IMG/VR virus record: IMGVR_UViG_3300038701_000531
Span: 1,438 to 65,437 of that record
DNA: 64,000 nt
Direction: 5' to 3' (one strand)
Source: a virus
Positions 2,207-12,222 of this stretch are shown here, in pieces. Within the stretch, counting starts at the first letter, position 1; each line of letters begins with the position of its first letter. A program made the translations under genes and the position numbers. The notes under the pieces were generated by a model, which searched no databases, was not told where the DNA came from, and saw only the letters and a list, made by a program, of their open reading frames with translations.

Positions 2207-3348
2207 GTATGAGCTTTAAACCTAAGAAGCCTAAAATAAAACCTTATGTACATAAGAAAAAAGATGACATAATTTATGATGATGAGGTAACAGCAGTTAT
2301 AGATTATGACTTAATATGCTTTAAAGCTGCTTCTGCTGGAGAGAAACGATTCATTATAGTTACTCATAAGCCTAGTGGAAGTAAAAAACAGTTTAAAACT
2401 AGAACTGAGTTCTATGGACATTATGCTAAAAAATCTGGTGGGTGGTTAGCAAAGACTAATAAAGAACGAGAAGAAAAAGGAAAAGAAATATTTCCTTTAG
2501 AGGACTTTGATATAGTTGATGATCGTAAAGTAGATGATATTAGTTTTATTTATAATTCTGTTAATAAAATGACAGCTAGAATATTAGATGCTTGTAAGAC
2601 TTCTACTTACAAAGCTTATTTAGGTTCAGGAGATAATTTTAGACATAAAGTAGCCACAGTAGAAAAGTATAAGGAAGGGCGTCAAGATTTAATTAAACCT
2701 CTGTACCTAGAGGAAACTAGGCAATATGTAAAAGATAAATTCAATGCAATAGAAATTAAAGAAAATGAAGATTTAACTAATCTAGAGGCAGATGATTATT
2801 TAGTCATAGAAGCCCATAAAGGGTATCAGGACTATTTAAAGACTAAGAGGTGCACTACCGTTCAGGTTAGTACTGACAAGGACTCCGCACAAGGAGAGGG
2901 GTTGTTTTATAATTATGATAAAATGAAAAAACCTTTTTTAGTTAAAGATTATGGACGGGTATTTATGTATCAACCGTCCTTAGACAGTAAAGAGGAAGTT
3001 AAGGGCTATGGTATGTGCTGGCTACTATGGCAAATGAGCGCAGGAGATTCTGCTGATACATATAAGCCAAGTAAACTAAGTAAAATGAATGTAGGTGATA
3101 TAGTTGCATATAAAAACTTAAAAGACACTAAAAATCTAAAAGAGGGTTTAGAAGCTACAGTTAGTCTTTACAAGAAAATGTACCCAGAACCTGTAACTTA
3201 CAATCATTGTATCACTGGAGAGGAAATAACTAAAGATTGGTTGGAACTAGCTAATGAATATTTTACCTTAGCTTATATGAAACGTTCTGAGAGTGATCAA
3301 ACTACCTTCACATGGTTATTAGAGGAATATAAAATTGAATATAAATGA
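2203..3348 (+). CDS. 5'-3' exodeoxyribonuclease
   Basis: IDYD, LEADD, STDKD and GDSADTY acidic motifs of the FEN/T7-exonuclease-like fold. Confidence 0.82.
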   Translation: MSMSFKPKKPKIKPYVHKKKDDIIYDDEVTAVIDYDLICFKAASAGEKRFIIVTHKPSGSKKQFKTRTEFYGHYAKKSGGWLAKTNKEREEKGKEIFPLEDFDIVDDRKVDDISFIYNSVNKMTARILDACKTSTYKAYLGSGDNFRHKVATVEKYKEGRQDLIKPLYLEETRQYVKDKFNAIEIKENEDLTNLEADDYLVIEAHKGYQDYLKTKRCTTVQVSTDKDSAQGEGLFYNYDKMKKPFLVKDYGRVFMYQPSLDSKEEVKGYGMCWLLWQMSAGDSADTYKPSKLSKMNVGDIVAYKNLKDTKNLKEGLEATVSLYKKMYPEPVTYNHCITGEEITKDWLELANEYFTLAYMKRSESDQTTFTWLLEEYKIEYK

Positions 3349-3601
3349 CGTTTTAGACTATATGAAAACTACAGACCTACATAAGTGGTGGTATGTAGAG
3401 GACTTGCGAGAGCATTCTTGGTCTTTGTATCAAGACGAGGTAAAGTGGGTAGTTGATGGGGAGGAGTGTAGTGCTGAGGTAAAACAAAGTACCACTGACC
3501 AAGGATTGTACTTTATTAATGCTGATAATGGTTGCGGAGATAATCTTACTTATATATTTGACACAGAGAAACAAGTATTAGAAGGCGAACTTGATGGATA
3601 A
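3335..3601 (+). CDS. hypothetical protein
   Basis: 88-aa ORF overlapping its neighbours. Confidence 0.65.
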   Translation: MNINDVLDYMKTTDLHKWWYVEDLREHSWSLYQDEVKWVVDGEECSAEVKQSTTDQGLYFINADNGCGDNLTYIFDTEKQVLEGELDG

Positions 3602-3830
3602 AATTAAAGACATGAGGGGAGTCCTCCTACAAGAAGGAGATGTTATTGCTTATGGTAGGTCTAGTAGGCATCACCCTATAAATATAGGAACTATAGAGGG
3701 CTTTGAAGAAGTAAGCGGCACTAATCGAGTATACATATTAGTTTTAGGTAAAGGTAACTCTAAAGTGGCTAAAATACCAAGTTATCACTCTGGTCGAATG
3801 ATAGTATTGCCATCACATTATATGGAGTAA
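3591..3830 (+). CDS. hypothetical protein
   Basis: 79-aa ORF, 'KDMRGVLLQEGDVIAY' phage motif. Confidence 0.65.
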   Translation: MMDKIKDMRGVLLQEGDVIAYGRSSRHHPINIGTIEGFEEVSGTNRVYILVLGKGNSKVAKIPSYHSGRMIVLPSHYME

Positions 3831-3832
3831 TT

Positions 3833-4360
3833 ATGATTGAACCTTGGGAGAAATACTCTCATATATGGAAAACTAAGTCAGCTTTCTTTACGTACTTAAG
3901 AGGCGCTATACGTAAATCTGTATGGAACTTATATCCGCCTAAATTAGACTTTAAGAATAAAGTGTGTAAGCCTCCCCCAGAGGGCATTGAGACTAGAGCT
4001 AAAACAGGAGCTTTCTGTGCTTTATCTGGTGAATGGGTAGGTAAGAGCAAAGGAGAAATAGACCATAAAGTTGGGAACGTATCTTTAAATGATTGGGAAG
4101 ATTTATTACCTTTTGTAGAACATCTATGTCTACGTTGTGAGGGTGACAATTTACAGTTAGTAACTAAAGAAGCCCACAAAATTAAAAGCTACGCTGAAAA
4201 GCATAACATATCTTATCAAGAAGCTAAAATCCAGAAGGAGACAATAAATATCTGTAAAGGGGATGAAAAAGAATGGTTACTAGAAAGAGGTATAACACCC
4301 GCTAGTAACGCTAAGAAAAGACGTCAACAGGTACTAGAGGAGCTTAGTAAGAATGACTGA
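3833..4360 (+). CDS. HNH-like endonuclease
   Basis: CALSGEW..EIDHKVG..NLQLVTKEAHKIKS. Confidence 0.65.
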   Translation: MIEPWEKYSHIWKTKSAFFTYLRGAIRKSVWNLYPPKLDFKNKVCKPPPEGIETRAKTGAFCALSGEWVGKSKGEIDHKVGNVSLNDWEDLLPFVEHLCLRCEGDNLQLVTKEAHKIKSYAEKHNISYQEAKIQKETINICKGDEKEWLLERGITPASNAKKRRQQVLEELSKND

Positions 4361-4526
4361 ATTTAATAAAGGTCAAGAACACTATAAAAATGGTGGTCGT
4401 GTTACAAGACGTTATGGAACTTTCTCTGGAGAATTTCATAGAGGTTATGTAGCTGAAGAAAGAATTAGTCGTTGTGGGTATAATAAATTACATTGGAATA
4501 AATCAAACAGAGTTAAAAGTTATTAA
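4353..4526 (+). CDS. hypothetical protein (57 aa; absent from the ORF track)
   Basis: ATGA overlap with upstream stop, RBS GGAG; MTEFNKGQEHY... Confidence 0.5.
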   Translation: MTEFNKGQEHYKNGGRVTRRYGTFSGEFHRGYVAEERISRCGYNKLHWNKSNRVKSY

Positions 4527-4536
4527 GGAGAGATTA

Positions 4537-4932
4537 ATGAGTGAGACTAGAACAGATATTATAATGCGTTACCAACTTGGGGTAGCTGAAACCGTAGAAG
4601 AAGCTATTAGTATTATAGAACCGCTATTAGGTAAACCAGAAAGTGAAGATGAATTTTACTTTGAACCTAAAGGTAAATTTAAAGCTTCTTGGATTAATAA
4701 TAAAGTATTTCTAGATTACTACTTTGTTGATGGTGCAACTACTTATTGTGATTTAGATTTTAGTTTAGGATTTGAAGAAGTAAATGAGGTGAGATCAGAG
4801 TTTGATAATGTGTTTACAGGGGAACAAGATATTTATATTGAGGATTGTTTACAGCCTTATGTAGATGGCGCAACATTAAGAGTGTTTCAGTATTATGATG
4901 GTGGATGTAGTGGTATATCGGAGGTAGAATAA
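4537..4932 (+). CDS. hypothetical protein
   Basis: Start moved to ATG 4537 (RBS AGGAG). Confidence 0.65.
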   Translation: MSETRTDIIMRYQLGVAETVEEAISIIEPLLGKPESEDEFYFEPKGKFKASWINNKVFLDYYFVDGATTYCDLDFSLGFEEVNEVRSEFDNVFTGEQDIYIEDCLQPYVDGATLRVFQYYDGGCSGISEVE

Positions 4933-4933
4933 T

Positions 4934-5971
4934 TTGAATTTAACAAAGAAAGAATTAGATTATATAGCTGAGAAATTAGCAGATAATATTAGTAATAGAC
5001 AAATCGCAAGAGATCTTTGGGGAGAATCAAATCAAGAATATAAAGTTCGTAGGGCTATTAATAATGGTTTAGTAGGGGTTAATGATAATCAGGGAGATAA
5101 ATCATTAAATGAAGCTATTGATTTGGAAGTCTTTAACCCTAAAGTTAATGTTTATAGTATTGAAACTAGTAAGACAGTAGTACCAAACGTTACCCATTTA
5201 ATGATACCTGATACACAATGTAAGCCAGATATATCTTTAGATTATTTAAAATGGTTAGGAGAGTATATAGCAGAGAAGCAGCCCGAGGTTATTATCCATA
5301 TTGGAGACCACGCTGATATGGAGTCTTTGAGTTCTTATGACAAAGGGAAGGGTAAAGCTGAGGGTAAGAGAGTACAAAAAGATATTGACGCAGCTATTGA
5401 GGGTATGAATGTACTACTTAAACCTCTTTATGACCTTCAACAGCAACAGAGGAAAGAAGTAGGGGAGGTTCTGTATAAACCTAAGATGGTTATGACTATA
5501 GGAAATCATGAAGAAAGGATTATGAGGCATGTTAATGATAACCCCGAACTACAAGGTTTCCTTGATTATGATAATCTTAAGTATAAAGATTTTGGATGGG
5601 AGGTTTATGATTTCTTAAAACCTGTAATAGTTAATGGGGTAAGTTACTGTCATTATATGGCAAACCCTATGACAGGAAGACCTTATGGAGGTATGGCTAT
5701 GAACGTCCTTAAGAATGTAGGAGAGAGCTTCTGTATGGGACATAAACAATGTTTAGATGTTGCTACAAGGTTCTTACCAGCATCAGGGAAGCAGCAATGG
5801 GCTATAATTGCAGGGGCTTATTATGAGCATAACGAAGACTATAAAGGGCATCAAGGGAATCATCATTGGAGAGGGGTTGTTATGCAACATAATGTTAAAA
5901 ACGGTAGTTTTAATCCTATGTTTGTTGATTTAGAGTATCTAAAGGATAGGTATGGCGCACAAAGATTATAA
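4934..5971 (+). CDS. calcineurin-like metallophosphoesterase with N-terminal HTH-like segment
   Basis: PDTQ, HIGDHAD, GNHE, CHY and GHKQ motifs. Confidence 0.85.
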   Translation: MNLTKKELDYIAEKLADNISNRQIARDLWGESNQEYKVRRAINNGLVGVNDNQGDKSLNEAIDLEVFNPKVNVYSIETSKTVVPNVTHLMIPDTQCKPDISLDYLKWLGEYIAEKQPEVIIHIGDHADMESLSSYDKGKGKAEGKRVQKDIDAAIEGMNVLLKPLYDLQQQQRKEVGEVLYKPKMVMTIGNHEERIMRHVNDNPELQGFLDYDNLKYKDFGWEVYDFLKPVIVNGVSYCHYMANPMTGRPYGGMAMNVLKNVGESFCMGHKQCLDVATRFLPASGKQQWAIIAGAYYEHNEDYKGHQGNHHWRGVVMQHNVKNGSFNPMFVDLEYLKDRYGAQRL

Positions 5972-6033
5972 ATTTTACAATGTACTATAACTGAGTTTTG
6001 TTTCATCCAAAGAAATTATTTTAATAAATACTA

Positions 6034-6062
6034 TTGCTTTTGAATAATTTCTTTGCTACTAT
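6034..6062 (+). promoter_or_regulatory. sigma70-like promoter
   Basis: TTGCTT-17 nt-TACTAT with extended -10 TG. Confidence 0.5.
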
Positions 6063-6133
6063 AGTTACCAGTTCCTAGAGTTTTGTTGCAAACGTTATAT
6101 TTCAAAGGCTCTAGGTAATATTTTAAATAATTG

Positions 6134-6162
6134 TTGTGTTATCCTAATAAGTTTGCTATTAT
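6134..6162 (+). promoter_or_regulatory. sigma70-like promoter heading the TAACAGA gene array
   Basis: TTGTGT-17 nt-TATTAT with extended -10 TG. Confidence 0.55.
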
Positions 6163-6200
6163 TAATGCATCAATATAACAGAGAGAAAAACGAGGGATTT

Positions 6201-6383
6201 ATGTTTGATACATCGAAAATAAAGATATTTAAGTTGGCTGATTTATCAGAGCGAACACTTAAGGTTAAGACTTTTTCCGACTCCATTGACCATTCGCAAA
6301 TGACGATAGCATTCGATTTAAAAACGGGCGAACACTTTGTTTTGGAATTTAAACAAATTCCGCAATGTGTTGAATCAAATTAA
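6201..6383 (+). CDS. array gene 1, hypothetical (60 aa)
   Basis: Start moved to ATG 6201 after GAGG; ends TAA-C. Confidence 0.7.
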   Translation: MFDTSKIKIFKLADLSERTLKVKTFSDSIDHSQMTIAFDLKTGEHFVLEFKQIPQCVESN

Positions 6384-6401
6384 CAGACAGGAGTTACCGA
6401 G

Positions 6402-6770
6402 ATGGAAAATTTTGATGTAAAGAAAAGTGATATATGGATGCTTGGCGAGGAAACGACAAAGGAAGAAGATAGGGTTGTTCGAACAGCAACTCCCGGGACT
6501 GTTGTTTATAAACCTGTAATGGGATTTGGGAAAGTCGAAATTGAAAGATACGTAGTGCTAAACCTTTATGCTGATCATGGTGGTGGATATTGCATTGTTG
6601 TCGCTAGGTTGCGCAGAGCAGAGTTGGATAGTTATGCCGCCCTTGATAGGAAGGTGACGTCTTGGAAACGGTTTAAATTCAACAATGAAATGGGCGACTT
6701 TTATACAAGGAAGGAAGATGCCGAATACATTGCCAGATGCCACGTTAGAAAAATTTCTGAAACAATTTAA
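6402..6770 (+). CDS. array gene 2, hypothetical
   Basis: 122 aa, RBS AGGAG inside the junction. Confidence 0.75.
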   Translation: MENFDVKKSDIWMLGEETTKEEDRVVRTATPGTVVYKPVMGFGKVEIERYVVLNLYADHGGGYCIVVARLRRAELDSYAALDRKVTSWKRFKFNNEMGDFYTRKEDAEYIARCHVRKISETI

Positions 6771-6784
6771 CAGATAGGTGAGTC

Positions 6785-7102
6785 ATGGAACCACTAACGT
6801 TTAAAGATATTGAAGAAATGAGCGAGAAGCTTAAATCAGTTCAAGAAGAAGCATTGAGAGGTTTGTTTTCTTGTTTTAAAGATGCTGATTACGACAGGGG
6901 CGACCAAATCATAATGCACTCGTCTTTGTTAAAAGGTCAGTCAATACCAGAATGGGCTAGCCATGTTATTCATTCGTCTGGCTGGATAGAAAGCGGTGCT
7001 TATTACGTTGTTAAAGGTAATAACGAAAAGGTTGAGTTGAAAATTAATGTGCCGATGTTCGTAGAGTGTGACCCACGTTCAATTCTACGTGTAACGGTAT
7101 AA
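6785..7102 (+). CDS. array gene 3, hypothetical
   Basis: 105 aa. Confidence 0.75.
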   Translation: MEPLTFKDIEEMSEKLKSVQEEALRGLFSCFKDADYDRGDQIIMHSSLLKGQSIPEWASHVIHSSGWIESGAYYVVKGNNEKVELKINVPMFVECDPRSILRVTV

Positions 7103-7116
7103 CAGATAGGTGAGTC

Positions 7117-7338
7117 ATGAATTTTAGAGATAGTGTACCAATCGAATTTTACAACGAAAAGGTATCTGGAAAATCGCACCCCAAAGTGCGGACAGTCGGT
7201 GAACTTAAAAAGCAGTTAGAAAGATTACCCGACGATTTACCGTTGCTGTATGACAACGAAGAAGAAGTTTATGAAATGGTGGTATACAACATTGACTCAA
7301 ATGCACACCTATCTCTTGTAGAAAAAGACTGTGGTTAA
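7117..7338 (+). CDS. array gene 4, hypothetical
   Basis: 73 aa, 'TVGELKKQLERLPDD' phage motif. Confidence 0.75.
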   Translation: MNFRDSVPIEFYNEKVSGKSHPKVRTVGELKKQLERLPDDLPLLYDNEEEVYEMVVYNIDSNAHLSLVEKDCG

Positions 7339-7364
7339 CAATTTAACAGATAGGAGAAATCAAA

Positions 7365-7547
7365 ATGGGTAGAGTTTATTCAGAGGCCGAAAAAATGGCG
7401 CAAGTAGCATCCTTGCAAAGAAACGGAAGACACAACGAAGCAGCTAACCTATCCCAAAGGTATGGGAATGAGCGCAAAAACCCGTCTTTAAAAAATCATT
7501 TCTGGAATGAGGCAGAGCGATCTCGTCGAATTAGAGACTCAGATTAA
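7365..7547 (+). CDS. array gene 5, hypothetical
   Basis: 60 aa. Confidence 0.7.
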   Translation: MGRVYSEAEKMAQVASLQRNGRHNEAANLSQRYGNERKNPSLKNHFWNEAERSRRIRDSD

Positions 7548-7565
7548 CAGATACACGCAAGGGGA

Positions 7566-8222
7566 ATGGAAATGGAAAATCAATTTTACTTAGTTTGTCG
7601 TCATGGCAATTGTGGTACTAACGTGATGTTTCATAACAAAGACGAAAACGGTTATGGAACTGACATAGACAACCTTCAGGTTTATACGGCTGAAGAAGGT
7701 CAAAAAGCTCTTGGCTATGACATTAAGTCATTACCCCTTTTAAAGTCTGCTGTAGACGAATTATCTATTAGATCAGTTGATTGTCAGTATGTAAGCCAAA
7801 ATGACGAACAGGAAGACCCTAACGGCGAATATATAGTCCAAGTCAAAGGCTGTTGGAATGGTAACGACATAGCCTTTGTCATGATGGGTGGTCAAACATA
7901 CGACTTAGACAAAGCGGCAGTATTCAGCCTTGAAGATGCGAAATCTGTATGCGGGTTTGATACTGACATTTGGTCAAAAGCTTATCTCATTTCGAAATCT
8001 AGACGAACCTTTCAAGAACAGAATATTTCAATTAGAAAAATGGTTACTGGTGCTGGTATCAAATACAAGAAACCAAGAAAGCGACGTGAGACATCTGGCA
8101 AGACTCGTCACAACTGCCCTAACTGCGGAAAAATCGTTTGGGATTACAACCCTTATGAAGCTCCGAATTGCTCAACTTATTGTGAGATTATGATGGCTCG
8201 TAATCCGTCATACGCCTACTAA
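7566..8222 (+). CDS. array gene 6, hypothetical with C-terminal Cys-rich (Zn-ribbon-like) segment
   Basis: 218 aa, CPNC...CSTYC. Confidence 0.75.
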   Translation: MEMENQFYLVCRHGNCGTNVMFHNKDENGYGTDIDNLQVYTAEEGQKALGYDIKSLPLLKSAVDELSIRSVDCQYVSQNDEQEDPNGEYIVQVKGCWNGNDIAFVMMGGQTYDLDKAAVFSLEDAKSVCGFDTDIWSKAYLISKSRRTFQEQNISIRKMVTGAGIKYKKPRKRRETSGKTRHNCPNCGKIVWDYNPYEAPNCSTYCEIMMARNPSYAY

Positions 8223-8247
8223 CCAAATTAACAGATAGAGGGAAGAC

Positions 8248-8574
8248 ATGGGAATCAATAAAAACAATGTCGTTTACTTGTTAAACGAGCTAGCAAATTC
8301 AGAGCCAGAGCAGTATGAAACTGGCGTAATGGAGATTCAATTTGAAGATGAAGATGGGCGTGATACTGGTTGTGATGTAAGCGTTAGCGAATTGGCAACT
8401 AGCGCGTCAATCAGAATTGAAAAATTAGAAGAGACTTGTCAGCGACTAAAAGACTTGCATCTTTGGTCACTCGGTCACTTCAATTTCCCGACGAAACAGG
8501 ACGGTGACGGTGCATATTGGTGGCGCAAAGAATTACGCCAAAAGCTAAACGAAATCCTGCATGAAGCAGGATAA
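8248..8574 (+). CDS. array gene 7, hypothetical
   Basis: 108 aa. Confidence 0.75.
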   Translation: MGINKNNVVYLLNELANSEPEQYETGVMEIQFEDEDGRDTGCDVSVSELATSASIRIEKLEETCQRLKDLHLWSLGHFNFPTKQDGDGAYWWRKELRQKLNEILHEAG

Positions 8575-8589
8575 CAGATAGCAAAGACA

Positions 8590-8694
8590 ATGGAATTTGG
8601 CGATTGGATAAATTTGTTGATCATTATAGTTATTGTCGCTGTTTGGTTCAGCCCAACAGAGCGAAATAGACGTAGAAACAATAGGAGTTACTAA
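8590..8694 (+). CDS. array gene 8, 34-aa single-pass membrane peptide (absent from the ORF track)
   Basis: MEFGDWINLLIIIVIVAVWFSPTERNRRRNNRSY*; TAATG coupling to the next gene. Confidence 0.55.
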   Translation: MEFGDWINLLIIIVIVAVWFSPTERNRRRNNRSY

Positions 8695-9023
8695 TGGAAA
8701 CTTTACCAGATTTTGAAATTTGTAAGCGAATAGCTGAAATAGAGGGTTTTGAAAAAGCTTTATTTGAGGGGGTTGAGGAAAGAGATTTCTTTGTCAAGTG
8801 TGAAAGTTTTAATGTACAAAGATTTAATCCTTTGACAGATGATGGTTTATGTTTTCATTTAATGTTAAAACATAATATTACTTTCTATAGTAAAAATCAT
8901 ATAATAGGTAATACTAAATATGGCGCTCGTAAATTTATAATTAATCACCCTAAAACAATAACTGATGAAAATCCAAATAGGGCTATATGTTTAGCTATTA
9001 TTGACGCTAATAAACTAAAATAA
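8694..9023 (+). CDS. DUF2591-like phage protein
   Basis: FNPLTDDGLCFHLM...NPNRAICLAII. Confidence 0.55.
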   Translation: METLPDFEICKRIAEIEGFEKALFEGVEERDFFVKCESFNVQRFNPLTDDGLCFHLMLKHNITFYSKNHIIGNTKYGARKFIINHPKTITDENPNRAICLAIIDANKLK

Positions 9024-9036
9024 TTTAAAAACTCAA

Positions 9037-9066
9037 TTGACATGAGTATCTAAAATAGGTTAATAT
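9037..9066 (+). promoter_or_regulatory. sigma70-like promoter for the tRNA pair
   Basis: TTGACA-18 nt-TAATAT. Confidence 0.5.
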
Positions 9067-9082
9067 TCATTGTCTACTAAAT

Positions 9083-9159
9083 ATCTCCATAACTCAATTG
9101 GAAAGAGTAATTTCCTTCTAAGAAATAGGTTGTAGGTTCGAGTCCTACTGGGGATGCCA
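9083..9159 (+). tRNA. tRNA-Arg(TCT)
   Basis: Acceptor ATCTCCA/TGGGGAT, anticodon loop CTTCTAA, GGTTCGAGTCC T-arm, encoded CCA. Confidence 0.9.
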
Positions 9160-9160
9160 A

Positions 9161-9237
9161 GGGTCTGAAGCTTAAGTGGTATAAGCAATCCGCTCATAAC
9201 GGAGAGATAGCTAGTTCGAATCTAGTCAGACCCACCA
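9161..9237 (+). tRNA. tRNA with CAT anticodon (Met or Ile2)
   Basis: GGGTCTG/CAGACCC acceptor, CTCATAA loop, TTCGAAT, encoded CCA. Confidence 0.9.
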
Positions 9238-9258
9238 ACTAATTAAGAGGAGAAAGTT

Positions 9259-9567
9259 TTGGGTATAATTTTAAGTCCTATCGAACAATTAAGAGCAGAA
9301 GCAGAACATATTAATTCTACTAAAAATACTCTTAAATTCCCTAAACAGGAACGATACAAACAACCTAATGGTTTAGATTGGATTGATAAATGCGCTGATT
9401 CTTTTACAGAGGAAGAATTTAGAGGGGCTATGAAATTTACAATAGGTAAATACTTAGAGAGGTTAGGTAAGAAGGATAATATAACCTTAGAAGTAACTAA
9501 GGTAGCGGATTATGCAACTCGTTGGTTAGAATATGAAAAGAGTAAGGAGGAAATTGATGGACTTTAA
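9259..9567 (+). CDS. DUF3310-like (T7 gp1.7-like nucleotide kinase family) protein
   Basis: IGKYLERLGKKD..EVTKVADYATRW pattern; next to MazG and thyX. Confidence 0.55.
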   Translation: MGIILSPIEQLRAEAEHINSTKNTLKFPKQERYKQPNGLDWIDKCADSFTEEEFRGAMKFTIGKYLERLGKKDNITLEVTKVADYATRWLEYEKSKEEIDGL

Positions 9568-10132
9568 TAAAAAATCAAAAGAGATATTTGAACAAAATAA
9601 AGAAGCTGGTTGGTGGGATGATATGAATCGTTGTATCTACCAGACATTGCAGCTAGTTAATACAGAAATAGCGGAAGCTACTGAGGGGGCTAGAAAAGAC
9701 CTTATAGATGACCATCTCCCTCATCGTAAAATGGAAGAGGTTGAATTAGCTGATGCATTAATTCGTATGTTAGATTTAGCTGGCCGTTGTGGTTGGGAAA
9801 ATGAAAACCTACATAGTGATGCTACTTTAGAGGAGGTTTTTAAACCTTGTATTTCTACTTTTAAAAATAGTAGTGCAGGTAAAGTACATCTAATTCTTAG
9901 TAGCATAGTCTGTACTATAGGGGATGAGATAAGTGACTCTGGTAAGTTTTATGACTCAAATTCTTTAGAAATATTAAATGCCTATAGCAGCTTTACTTAT
10001 TCAATATTATTATATAGTAAATGTAAAGGGTATGATGTGTTAGGCGCTATGGAAGAAAAATTGGAATATAACAAAAATAGACTAGATCATAAGCGTGAAA
10101 ATCGTGCTAAAGAAGGAGGTAAGAAGTTTTAA
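9557..10132 (+). CDS. MazG-like NTP pyrophosphohydrolase
   Basis: EIAEATEG..EEVELADALIRMLD..EKLEYNKNR; start moved to ATG 9557. Confidence 0.8.
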   Translation: MDFNKKSKEIFEQNKEAGWWDDMNRCIYQTLQLVNTEIAEATEGARKDLIDDHLPHRKMEEVELADALIRMLDLAGRCGWENENLHSDATLEEVFKPCISTFKNSSAGKVHLILSSIVCTIGDEISDSGKFYDSNSLEILNAYSSFTYSILLYSKCKGYDVLGAMEEKLEYNKNRLDHKRENRAKEGGKKF

Positions 10133-10767
10133 TGAAAGTAGTATACATCGACCATATGGGAGACGACACTTCTGTAGTTAAAGCTGCTAGAGTTTCTTTT
10201 GCTCAAGATGGGGAGGTACGTAGTGTAGAAGACAATACAAAATTAATCAATTATTTGGCTAAACACCGTCATTGGACACCTTTTTCACATACTTCTATTA
10301 CTTTACGTATGACTGCCCCCATACCTATTAGGACGCAAGCTTTTAAACATAAGGTAGGTTTTTCAGAAAATGAGGAAAGTAGGCGCTACGTCAGTTATGA
10401 ACCTGAGTACTTTATTCCAGAGTTCAGGGAATCATGTGATAATAAAAAGCAAGGATCGGGAGGCTCTCATCCTGAAAGCAATAAAATACAAGACCTCTAT
10501 AAGGTGTGTATGGAATATAACATTCGGTTGTATAAGAACTTATTAGATAAAGGTGTAGCAGAAGAACAAGCAAGGTTTGTACTACCACAAGGGTGTATGG
10601 TTAATTGGTATTGGACAGGGAGTTTAAGCGCTTTTGCTAGATTCTATAAACAACGTAGTGACTCTCATGCACAAAAAGAAATTCAAGAATTAGCTAAAAT
10701 GGTTGCAGATACTATCCAACCACTATATCCTATATCTTGGAAAGCCCTTACAGAGGATAAAACATGA
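10132..10767 (+). CDS. thyX: flavin-dependent thymidylate synthase
   Basis: HWTPFSH, KHK..NEESRRY, EQARFVLP, HAQKEI. Confidence 0.95.
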   Translation: MKVVYIDHMGDDTSVVKAARVSFAQDGEVRSVEDNTKLINYLAKHRHWTPFSHTSITLRMTAPIPIRTQAFKHKVGFSENEESRRYVSYEPEYFIPEFRESCDNKKQGSGGSHPESNKIQDLYKVCMEYNIRLYKNLLDKGVAEEQARFVLPQGCMVNWYWTGSLSAFARFYKQRSDSHAQKEIQELAKMVADTIQPLYPISWKALTEDKT

Positions 10768-11081
10768 AATTACCCTTTAAAACAGTATTACTAGATGATA
10801 TACTAGAATACTACCCAGAGATAGACCCTCAGACCTCCTCAGAGGCAGAATTAGAGGTTTTATTATATAAGCTAGGTATTGATATCAATTTTGGATTTGA
10901 ACAGCTTACAAGGCTATTCAGGGACTCAAAAGATAAAACAAAAGTTGAAAACAAAGTTTGCTGGAGCGGAATTGAACGTTCTGATAAAGTTTGGCGTGAT
11001 AGTGGTAATGCTTCTGAAGAATGTCTAGAATTATTCCGAAGTAGTATAGCAAGAGATGTAGGAGATAAACTTAGTGTTTGA
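10764..11081 (+). CDS. hypothetical protein
   Basis: 105-aa ORF, ATGA overlap. Confidence 0.65.
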   Translation: MKLPFKTVLLDDILEYYPEIDPQTSSEAELEVLLYKLGIDINFGFEQLTRLFRDSKDKTKVENKVCWSGIERSDKVWRDSGNASEECLELFRSSIARDVGDKLSV

Positions 11082-11235
11082 TAAAAACTACATTTAAATC
11101 ACTACTACTAGTGATTAATTATTAGTTGTATTGAATTAAGTAGTTTATTAACTATTACTAGTGAATAATAAATAGTATTAATTTAAGAGAGTTTTGGTAA
11201 ATCTAACACCTCTTTTTTTTTTTGGAGAATAATAA

Positions 11236-12222
11236 TTGATAAAAAAACCTAATATTCAAAAACCACAACCAGCTTATGTTTTTGAATACCCAGAATATGC
11301 AACCTTAGCAGATCAACAATTAGATGTGTTTTGGCCTTGGAAAGAAATAGACGTTAGTAAAGATAAACAAGCTCTTTTAACTGAGATGTCAGAAAGTGAA
11401 AAACATGGAGTGACGACAGCTTTAAAACTCTTCACTAAATATGAAATAATTGTAGGTAATGAATATTGGTTAGGTAGGGTTATGAGAAACTTCCCTAAAC
11501 CCGAAATACAAAGGATGGCAGCAGCTTTCGGCCATGTAGAGTTAAATAGTCATGCACCTTTCTACAATGAGATTAATAAGGAATTAGGTTTGGCTACAGA
11601 AGATTTTTATAATTCTTATGTAGAGGATGAGACTCTTAAGGGTCGTATGGATTTTATTGATAAACTGGTTAGTAGTAAAGACGATGTATTATCTTTAGCC
11701 GCCTTCAGTATCGTAGAGGGCGCTGTGTTGTACAGTAGCTTTGCTTTTCTAAAGCACTTTCAAAGTAATGGCAAAAATAAGCTAACCAATATATGTAGAG
11801 GCATTAATATGTCAGTTACAGATGAAAATCTACACAGCATTGGCGGTGCAAGTTTATGTAGAGACCTTAAAAGAGAACTAGAATATACTGAGGAGGAGGA
11901 GTTAGAGTTTGAACATGAGGTGTACAGTTTATGCGATATAGTTAGGGACCATGAATATCGTATCATTGATATGATCTTTGAGAAAGGTAAAATGGATGGC
12001 ATTACTGATATACAGATGAAACATTTTGTAGATAGTCGTATCAACACTTGTTTACAGCAATTAGGGCTTAACAGACTTTATGATGTTAAATATAACCCTA
12101 TTGCAGAATGGTTTTATAAAGGTATTAATAACTACCAATTTAATGATTTCTTTAGTGGTATTGGTAGAGAGTACCAAAGGAATTGGGATGAATCTAAGTT
12201 TATATGGAGGAAGAAAACCTAG
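11236..12222 (+). CDS. nrdB: class I ribonucleotide reductase beta subunit
   Basis: FTKYE, ELNSHAPFY, VEGAVLYSSF, DENLH diiron motifs. Confidence 0.95.
   Translation: MIKKPNIQKPQPAYVFEYPEYATLADQQLDVFWPWKEIDVSKDKQALLTEMSESEKHGVTTALKLFTKYEIIVGNEYWLGRVMRNFPKPEIQRMAAAFGHVELNSHAPFYNEINKELGLATEDFYNSYVEDETLKGRMDFIDKLVSSKDDVLSLAAFSIVEGAVLYSSFAFLKHFQSNGKNKLTNICRGINMSVTDENLHSIGGASLCRDLKRELEYTEEEELEFEHEVYSLCDIVRDHEYRIIDMIFEKGKMDGITDIQMKHFVDSRINTCLQQLGLNRLYDVKYNPIAEWFYKGINNYQFNDFFSGIGREYQRNWDESKFIWRKKT

Follow-up and report, generated by a model that had tools for sequence, protein, structure and literature searches.

A short oriented linker precedes each small gene of a compositionally foreign island in a phage genome

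Oriented repeats at the junctions of accessory genes are already known from phages. In the T4-type phages, promoter-early stem-loops (PeSLs) are associated with a modular shuffling of genes, and each PeSL comprises a full sigma-70 promoter and a terminator stem-loop, so that each gene constitutes its own transcription unit (PMC2839356, PMC4122927). In the Cluster K mycobacteriophages, the start-associated sequences (SAS) and their extended forms (ESAS) follow the consensus GGGATAGGAGCCC, and their function is unknown (PMC3203893). In this study, we describe a locus that has features of both. The window that we analysed is a stretch of 64,000 nucleotides, positions 1438-65437 of a single viral contig of 70,872 bp with 34.7% GC (IMG/VR record IMGVR_UViG_3300038701_000531), and it contains a block of eight small genes at 6134-8694 (o1 to o8, all on the + strand). 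Each gene is preceded by a short linker, the core of which, (T)TAACAGATAG, lies directly 5′ of the Shine-Dalgarno (SD) sequence, and some copies of which extend to about 22 nt. We show that this linker is non-random and, within the genome, confined to a compositional island. The junctions ahead of o1 to o8 are called J1 to J8.

PeSLs resemble the linker in that they flank small non-essential open reading frames (ORFs) in hyperplastic regions, that the breakpoints of insertions, deletions and replacements fall at the repeats, and that homologous recombination between the repeats is the proposed mechanism. However, the linker described here consists of 10-22 nt of stop and pre-SD sequence inside one operon, no promoter or hairpin units occur at the junctions, and the linker is common to unrelated phage backbones. 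In the PeSL system, recombination of adjacent repeats gives rise to mini-circles or deletions. SAS are likewise short asymmetric repeats in one orientation, immediately 5′ of the start codons of non-structural genes; they include or abut the SD, an upstream stop codon may fall within them, and the genes that follow represent different families. In addition, the SAS consensus and J5 have the octamer GATAGGAG in common. Nevertheless, the core here is TAACAGATAG rather than GGGATAGGAGCCC, and that octamer in J5 is the only coincidence. SAS lie 3-7 bp from the ATG, whereas the core in the window ends 7-15 nt before it, and SAS are dispersed over half a genome in one phage cluster, whereas the linker is found in one foreign island and in unrelated phages. 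Moreover, SAS have not been reported as recombination breakpoints. The linker is an analogue of SAS and not a member.

Integron attC sites are hairpin-forming imperfect inverted repeats, about 55-140 bp in length. The array resembles an integron in that its units, mostly single genes without an evident promoter of their own, all point the same way behind a promoter-like region, in the TAAC ends of its genes and in its variable accessory contents. However, an attC (55 nt or more, an imperfect palindrome) is lacking, as are IntI in the record, attI and a conserved GTTRRRY, and the junctions measure 14-25 nt and include the ribosome-binding site. The layout is integron-like with the defining parts absent, and the array is not an integron. 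The stoperators of the Cluster A mycobacteriophages (PMC9283540) are a fourth relevant system, being asymmetric sites of the 13-bp class in short intergenic gaps and oriented with transcription; however, they are spread genome-wide and need a cognate immunity repressor, whereas here no such repressor was found and the sites are tied to SDs and stop codons. Compared with these systems, four features are new. The first is a very small linker, without hairpin or promoter and with stops in several frames, and the second is its occurrence in several unrelated backbones. The third is the coincidence, as judged from alignments, of homology breakpoints with the linker at base level. The fourth is the composition, which proves that the whole array moved into an apparently lytic myophage.

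The eight linkers and the island around them

The motif TAACAGA, followed by (T/C/G)A, begins on the + strand at 6176, 6381, 6768, 7100, 7344, 7545, 8229 and 8572. As a preliminary description of the block had stated, each copy stands before one of eight consecutive small ORFs; the distance from the start of the motif to the ATG is 17-25 nt, and all eight copies lie directly 5′ of the SD. According to the genome-wide density on the + strand, 0.61 copies are expected in the 2,561-nt block compared with the eight found (P about 3e-7), and in 2,000 dinucleotide shuffles of the block the mean was 0.31 and the maximum 3. The remaining copies in the 70,872-bp genome, nine on the + strand and ten on the − strand, are all within coding sequence, which agrees with the earlier statement that the motif is found at no other gene junction.

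In each of the seven upstream genes the stop codon is a TAA with C as the next nucleotide, and five of them use the TAA of the motif itself. The genes o4 and o6 have a separate TAAC stop (at 7336 and 8220, respectively), 8-9 nt before a second full motif. The gaps between stop and start at the junctions are 14-25 nt. The two long identities between junctions that had been pointed out before, one of 20 nt and one of 18 nt, were found again between J3 and J4 and between J3 and J5 (AACAATTTAACAGATAGG), respectively.

The linkers differ in the sequence around the core, and four types (A to D) could be told apart. J1 (type D, TAACAGAG.AAAAAC, 6176-6185) lies in the 5′ leader of o1, where its TAA is not needed by any upstream gene, and J2 reads TAACAGACAGGAG (6381-6390). 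J3 (type A, TAACAGATAGGTGA, 6768-6781) presents stops in three frames followed by the SD, and J4 (7100-7113) is also of type A. J5 reads TAACAGATAGGAGA (7344-7355), J6 (type C) reads TAACAGATACACGC (7545-7558), and J8 reads TAACAGATAGC (8572-8581). J7 is an extended linker of type B (TAACCAAAT+TAACAGATAGAGGG, 8220-8242), a type defined as TAACAGATAGAGGG with an AACCAAAy extension. Two junctions read as degenerate tandems of an 8-mer, TAACAATT + TAACAGAT in J5 and TAACCAAAT + TAACAGAT in J7, and such tandems would be the expected remnant of unequal joining between two linker-bearing units. As a separate observation, the reverse complement of the type-A linker and SD (CACCTATCTCTTGTA) occurs inside the 3′ part of o4 at 7306-7320 (compared with 7098-7112 for the linker), 193 nt downstream of J4; it could pair with the type-A or J5 SD regions in the mRNA, or it could be a chance occurrence.

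When 23 copies of the junction, taken from the window and from five further contigs, are aligned, AACAGA is invariant, T usually precedes it and TAG usually follows it, and a CA(A/G)(A/T)(A/T) element just upstream of the core is weakly conserved. The canonical linker TAAcagaTAGgTGA contains a stop in each frame and the SD (GGTGA) at its end. Three-frame stops are present in 9 of the 23 copies and most of the others have two, and the stop positions are used by real upstream ORFs: TAA by five genes of the window, TAG in contig L284 and TGA in contig L137. Because J1 stands in the leader of a first gene and a further copy follows the last gene of an operon in L284, the core must be more than a stop codon.

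A promoter had also been proposed at 6134-6162. The hexamers are indeed present ahead of J1 (TTGTGT, 17 nt, TATTAT, + strand), although they score below the threshold of the promoter scan, and on the basis of the sequence we consider a promoter at this site plausible. The scan detected no sigma-70-like site scoring above 9 of 12 on the + strand inside the block. Just ahead of the first motif lies a stretch (ATCAATAT+AACAGA) that is similar to the AT-rich one found in contig L198 before its o6 homologue (ATCAATAC+AACAGA). TTAACA within the linker was tried as a -35 box and rejected, since J3, J5 and J7, read by eye, have no -10 box at 16-18 nt.

The preliminary description suggested an integron-like mechanism with no attC hairpin and no integrase in the window. 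Both absences were borne out; the mechanism was not. A local repeat search revealed no inverted repeats at the junctions, and the RNA fold z-scores against shuffles range from -0.4 to +2.0 with the motif mostly unpaired, except in the region before J8. There, a 7-bp hairpin (ATCCTGC/GCAGGAT, 8554-8572) at the 3′ end of o7 abuts the junction with a z-score of -3.4 and is partly conserved in contig L285. The GTTA read on the bottom strand of every junction is trivially true, and the two perfect GTTRRRY sites exist, but 2 of 8 is about the number expected by chance once GTTA is fixed. A tyrosine recombinase elsewhere in the genome had been considered; in the whole 70,872-bp record, the completeness of which CheckV puts at 78%, PF00589 gave no match at E <= 1 while controls were positive in 14/14 genomes, and PF00239 (serine recombinase) likewise gave no match with positive controls.

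The composition of the block separates it from the rest of the genome. It had been judged by eye to be richer in GC and CpG than its flanks, and computation supports that impression: the GC content is 0.394 compared with 0.345 for the genome, a value reached by 0.3% of equal-sized windows, and the observed/expected (o/e) ratio of CpG is 1.08, the highest of all 2.5-kb windows of the genome (mean 0.37, standard deviation 0.17). Each of o1 to o8 has a CpG o/e of at least 0.97 and a GC content at third codon positions (GC3) of 0.34-0.40, whereas the flanking phosphoesterase gene and o9, o10 and o11 have a GC3 of 0.15-0.27. Dense CpG begins at about 6191 and ends at about 8671, which delimits an island (6191-8671) with a GC content of 0.39. 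Therefore, the island coincides exactly with the motif-bearing genes o1 to o8, and the block is foreign DNA inside a CpG-depleted backbone. Eight relatives of the backbone that are syntenic on both sides possess none of o1 to o9; their slot is filled by other genes, with no island and no repeated 9-mer. The slot after the metallophosphoesterase gene is thus variable among the backbone relatives, and the homology of o6 and o7 to genes elsewhere ends at linkers.

The linker and its cassettes in other phages

At least four further phage contigs, unrelated in other respects, contain linkers of the same types, and two genes of the block have close homologues there. The first is o6 (7566-8222, 218 aa, or 216 aa from the second ATG). 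Contig L198, from ENA, encodes a small terminase of the Sf6 type and has a GC content of 0.39 and a CpG o/e of 0.99. It matches the window at 7546-8240 with 76.5% nucleotide identity, a stretch delimited by the linkers on either side of o6; outside these limits the two sequences are unrelated. Upstream of its o6 homologue, an AT-rich stretch ending in ATCAATAC+AACAGATACACGC resembles both J1 and J6, and the type C linker of J6 is also found at this place. The Logan contig L284 (41.8 kb, GC 0.386) encodes DnaB and has a Rad52-like gene, and it carries o6 at 85% nucleotide identity as the final gene of a different operon. The 109-aa gene before it stops at the TAG within TAACAGATAGAAGG, and 3′ of o6 the sequence TAACCAGAA+CAACAGATAGAGG is followed by a terminator hairpin. 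A side observation concerns L198 at 162-1025, where all three stops in and just before the post-o6 linker are substituted (TAA to CAA twice, TAG to GAG); these losses fuse o6 in frame with the next 61-aa cassette into an ORF of 287 aa, a natural read-through of a linker.

The second gene is o7 (8248-8574, 108 aa). Contig L285, a 1.2-kb Logan contig with five linkers, carries a 92%-identical copy, with 91% nucleotide identity in the alignment, and the homology begins at AACCAAAyTAACAGAT and ends right after the next TAACAGATA. The other three genes of L285 are unrelated to those of the window. One of them, at 284-508 and two genes upstream of the o7 homologue, encodes 74 aa with an Acb2/Tad1-hairpin domain (PF24729, E 3e-20), of the type directed against CBASS and Thoeris. 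The preliminary description had guessed that the block holds accessory genes of host takeover or anti-defence, and the presence of this gene in a sister array lends the guess some support. The Acb2/Tad1 gene is followed by a GC-rich intergenic stretch of 98 nt (509-606), for which an Rfam search was negative; no Rfam family was detected in the block, L198 or L285.

These alignments agree with the earlier suggestion of modular single-gene units bounded by the motif, since o6 (L198, L284) and o7 (L285) stand between the same linkers with other neighbours and their homology starts and stops at the linker. Besides o6 and o7, the linker-bearing contigs have hardly anything in common with the window genome or among themselves; outside these genes the amino acid identity between the window genome and these contigs is at most about 42%, in a few ORFs. 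Their composition (GC 0.38-0.41, CpG o/e 0.84-0.99) matches the island and not the backbone (0.345 and 0.37). In L137, three identical type-A junctions separate additional small ORFs that are unrelated, and in L287 the core occurs twice, in type-A linkers between unrelated ORFs. Type D (J1) is also found before the Acb2-like gene of L285, and type B (J7) lies 3′ of o6 in three phages and 5′ of two other genes in L285. Because the variants A to D (14-22 nt) are common to several phages and yet precede different genes, we consider the linker to be a module that re-assorts relative to the ORFs on either side.

The positions at which homology ends are not fixed within the linker. The breakpoints do not fall at one phosphodiester bond, and the SD half travels either with the upstream gene or with the downstream gene. 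Moreover, the T of TAAC is replaced by C in copies of L198 and L284, such that the GTT triplet is not conserved. Such variable breakpoints are less in keeping with site-specific strand exchange than with gene conversion and recombination at short homologies.

Among the many homologues of o6, only the close ones (L198, L284) carry the linker. The distant ones (at most 62% aa identity; about 100 viral and 33 bacterial loci) have no motif, nor does a distant o7 homologue, and the motif is therefore not intrinsic to the o6 and o7 protein families. Distant homologues of o3 (L390-L394) stand in other small-gene arrays with a different pre-SD junction motif, TGTCGTTTAAG. In these arrays (L390:1-800; L391:450-3720), the number of cassettes differs between near-identical contigs, duplicates are present (two 144-aa genes in L391, two 109-aa genes in L394), and each array ends with a gene for a PapB-family regulator. 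In addition, a phage contig with a 42%-identical o6 homologue (L217) has a 30-nt junction of its own, AACCACCAGCAAACAGAGAGATAGATTATG, twice before two consecutive small genes (5830-6220).

Searches of larger collections yielded little. The block had no nucleotide match among 50,697 GenBank phages in either near or distant mode, and tblastn of o3 and o7 against the same phages returned nothing useful. The exact 20-nt string of J3/J4 and a 21-nt string of J1 had no matches in IMG/VR, and patterns for type B and the extended linker (IMG/VR) and for type A (JGI metagenomes) gave single matches. The matches that were examined lie in continuous sequence with no junction arrays, except for L137 and L287. 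Because the pattern matches occur in about the number expected by chance, the linker family is rare in these two collections.

Variation was also sought within the sample itself. The block is 100% identical in contigs of two runs from two studies, and no J3-J4 deletion joint was seen in the main population among the run contigs. However, the source run (X1) contains a minor contig of 3,072 nt at a depth of 39, compared with about 1,005, that matches o8 and the start of o9 (91%) and 57 nt after o9, and that also contains a 21-nt piece ending at the J1 motif and a 21-nt piece of the type-A linker; it has no match to o1 to o7 at an identity of at least 85%. This contig is suggestive of a co-occurring relative that probably has the same frame with different cassettes. 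In the same run, a related phage with about 88-91% nucleotide identity (3000-12000 of the window) is present at about 3-4% of the main depth, and in the array region its contig retains o8 and pieces of the linker and lacks o1 to o7.

The genes of the block and their setting

No function was assigned to the genes of the block by Pfam and PHROGs searches, and no helix-turn-helix (HTH) or repressor family was detected in o1 to o8. The first gene, o1 (6201-6383, 60 aa), belongs to no recognisable family and uses the TAA of J2 as its stop. The second, o2 (6402-6770, 122 aa), is an orphan, its sole match in a search of 5.8 billion proteins being o2 itself. The third, o3 (6785-7102, 105 aa), belongs to a family of small proteins that share a conserved ADYDRGD motif; its matches in giant He_PIG/cadherin-repeat proteins were rejected as a coincidence of that motif. 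For o4 (7117-7338, 73 aa), the matches, to DUF6225 and phrog_7217, are all below threshold, and o5 (7365-7547) encodes a basic protein of 60 aa with no recognisable family. The largest protein, that of o6, belongs to phrog_2457, has a C-terminal Cys4 zinc-ribbon-like motif, and represents a family that is widespread among gammaproteobacterial phages and prophages. Its fold is predicted with confidence (pLDDT 88); the model had no match in the PDB, and its neighbours in the AlphaFold DB are uncharacterised proteins only. An Atlas look-up of o7 gave nothing over noise. The last island-type gene, o8 (8590-8694), encodes a hydrophobic 34-aa peptide predicted to be a small membrane peptide, and its stop overlaps the ATG of the backbone-type gene o9.

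The right flank outside the island begins with o9 (8694-9023, + strand; GC3 0.145, phrog_444-like), and 3′ of it lie tRNA-Arg(TCT) (9083-9159) and tRNA-Met(CAT) (9161-9237), both on the + strand. The contigs of public runs break at this tRNA pair (9083-9237), and their loose ends resemble other tRNA contexts. On the left, a perfect inverted repeat of 13 bp with a 22-nt loop (6008-6055, + strand) sits between the metallophosphoesterase gene (4934-5971) and the block; it is AT-rich and CpG-poor, like the backbone, and is probably a terminator or the boundary of the upstream backbone unit. The metallophosphoesterase is 66% identical to its homologue in Rheinheimera phage Barba19A and 68-82% identical to those of several uncultivated viral contigs, and because of these identities we assign the source phage, by sequence, to the Barba19A-like marine myophages. 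The phage is apparently lytic because no integrase was found in the record, and the contig is present in two "algae metagenome" studies. Throughout the genome, the backbone is depleted in CpG (o/e about 0.33-0.37) while GpC is normal (about 1.0). Among the backbone relatives, L003 (0.39) and L009 (0.38) are alike in this respect and L007 (0.83) is unlike, and host methylation, restriction pressure or mutational bias are possible causes of the depletion.

Origin and role of the linker

We propose that the block is a horizontally acquired accessory operon in which the linker serves both as an intercistronic expression signal and as a substrate for short-homology exchange, an explanation to which we give about an even chance. 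According to this explanation, eight small cistrons behind one promoter-like region would form an operon in the hypervariable slot after the metallophosphoesterase gene, and the island would have been captured from a pool of GC-40% phages whose small early or accessory genes carry the linker. The linker would be kept as an intercistronic signal, either for termination followed by re-initiation or as a start-associated sequence; alternatively, it may be kept by binding a host factor. Because identical sequences of 10-22 nt stand at every boundary, short-homology recombination between co-infecting phages could produce clean swaps of single genes, and genes may likewise be inserted or deleted precisely at ORF boundaries. 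Single-strand-annealing recombinases, for example those of the Rad52-like and ERF genes of contigs L284 and L201, could perform the exchange, and Rad52-like phage recombinases carry out relaxed homologous recombination (PMC3945230). A dedicated integrase would not be required. The three-frame stops would make new joins translationally safe, and gene conversion within the array may homogenise linkers, as the identity of J3 and J4 suggests.

Several points weigh against this explanation. No recombination event was directly observed, and the array does not vary between the two independent runs. Close homologues elsewhere exist for two of the eight cassettes, o2 being an orphan and the relatives of o3 distant. 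The 10-nt core is short even for single-strand-annealing recombinases, and neither RecA, Rad52 nor any other clear recombinase was found in the genome of the window (78% complete), in which an AAA_24 match was sub-threshold only. Illegitimate recombination followed by selection for intact genes can also place breakpoints at gene boundaries. Furthermore, the SD half before o7 is AGAGGG in the window and AGGTGA in L285, and the leader of o6 differs in L284; therefore, extra events such as conversion must be assumed. Finally, the distance from motif to ATG (17-25 nt in the window) reaches 30 nt in L198, which sits uneasily with the supposed translational role, and the linker remnant after the last gene of L284 has nothing translated downstream.

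The principal alternative is that the motif is purely an expression signal, a start-associated RNA or DNA element that a host factor would recognise, and that gene exchange there is a side effect of selection that keeps genes whole, which we consider possible but doubtful. The candidates include a ribosome standby or re-initiation enhancer, a site for a translational repressor or a CsrA-like binder, and a site at which a single-strand endoribonuclease would cut a polycistronic early mRNA into monocistronic pieces. The motif has a single orientation, invariably adjoins the SD on its 5′ side and is predicted to be unpaired in the mRNA, it occurs in a first-gene leader where no stop codon is needed, and it is conserved while the adjacent SD and spacer vary. 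Moreover, the arrays of o3 homologues use TGTCGTTTAAG at the same position, which suggests lineage- or host-specific signals, and the SAS of the Cluster K mycobacteriophages provide a described parallel (PMC3203893). Given the unrelated backbones, a factor acting in trans would need to be encoded by the host. However, a purely expressive role leaves unexplained why variants of about 20 nt are shared by unrelated phages and re-assorted relative to genes, and it accounts poorly for the linker remnant after the last gene of L284, for the variable distance to the ATG, and for the absence of an Rfam match and of a conserved structure. An expression signal is in any case compatible with the explanation that we favour, and the two are not exclusive.

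A stoperator-like role, in which the immunity repressor of temperate donors would block elongation at the junctions of a potentially toxic operon and the sites would be inert passengers in the lytic recipient, is in our opinion very unlikely. The sites are asymmetric, in one orientation and in short intergenic junctions, the first copy lies just 3′ of the promoter-like region, and the L5-type stoperators are a precedent (PMC9283540). Furthermore, the donor-type contigs look temperate or lambdoid (ERF, SSB, Rad52-like, NinB), and in L137 a gene for an HTH protein follows the third junction. However, no repressor, shared DNA-binding gene or recombinase gene was found across the linker-bearing contigs, which have 2-5 sites each and around particular cassettes only (in L284, around o6 only), and the tight coupling to the SD and the three-frame stops would be unexpected for operators.

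It is hardly more than a long shot, in our judgement, that the linker is recognised, and used for crossover, by a dedicated recombination or nicking activity of host or phage origin. Such an activity would amount to a hairpin-less and integrase-less capture of cassettes and would carry single anti-defence or host-takeover genes from one phage to an unrelated one, and the design of three-frame stops and SD would have evolved for expression wherever captured genes land. We also find it highly improbable that a static operon was acquired en bloc and that the likeness of its junctions is a leftover of serial intergenic duplication in the donor, with no continuing function or mobility. The shared donor-like composition of the eight genes, the identity of the array in two runs and the 20-nt identity of J3 and J4 would be expected in that case, but in other phages o6 and o7 are bounded by the same linker and have other neighbours, an invariant core stands between unrelated flanks, and the sample apparently also contains a variant array. 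Least credible is an integron-like system in which strand exchange by a phage or host recombinase would take place at TAAC/GTTA within a minimal site that has no hairpin: promoterless single-gene units in a single orientation behind one promoter-like region, TAAC at the end of all upstream genes and between-phage breakpoints at the motif would agree with it, but the junctions of 14-25 nt have no attC-like imperfect palindromes and, except before J8, fold z-scores near 0, GTTRRRY is at chance and the T of TAAC is not kept in the L198 and L284 copies, the breakpoint within the linker is not fixed, and no tyrosine or serine recombinase in the genome and no recombinase gene common to the linker-bearing contigs was found.

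This case touches on the old question of how the small accessory genes of phages, many of which act against defence systems, turn over precisely at ORF boundaries, whether by homologous linkers or by illegitimate recombination followed by selection. It offers a concrete and testable substrate, an oriented linker of 10-22 nt common to at least five otherwise unrelated phage backbones, and the stops in up to three frames followed by an SD would make linker-to-linker joins immediately functional. The contrast in CpG o/e (1.08 compared with 0.37) indicates that a lytic myophage took up a whole array from a different phage pool. If the linker promotes exchange, then accessory and anti-defence genes could be found in metagenomes by looking between linkers, and the linker itself could serve to engineer the accessory regions of phages.

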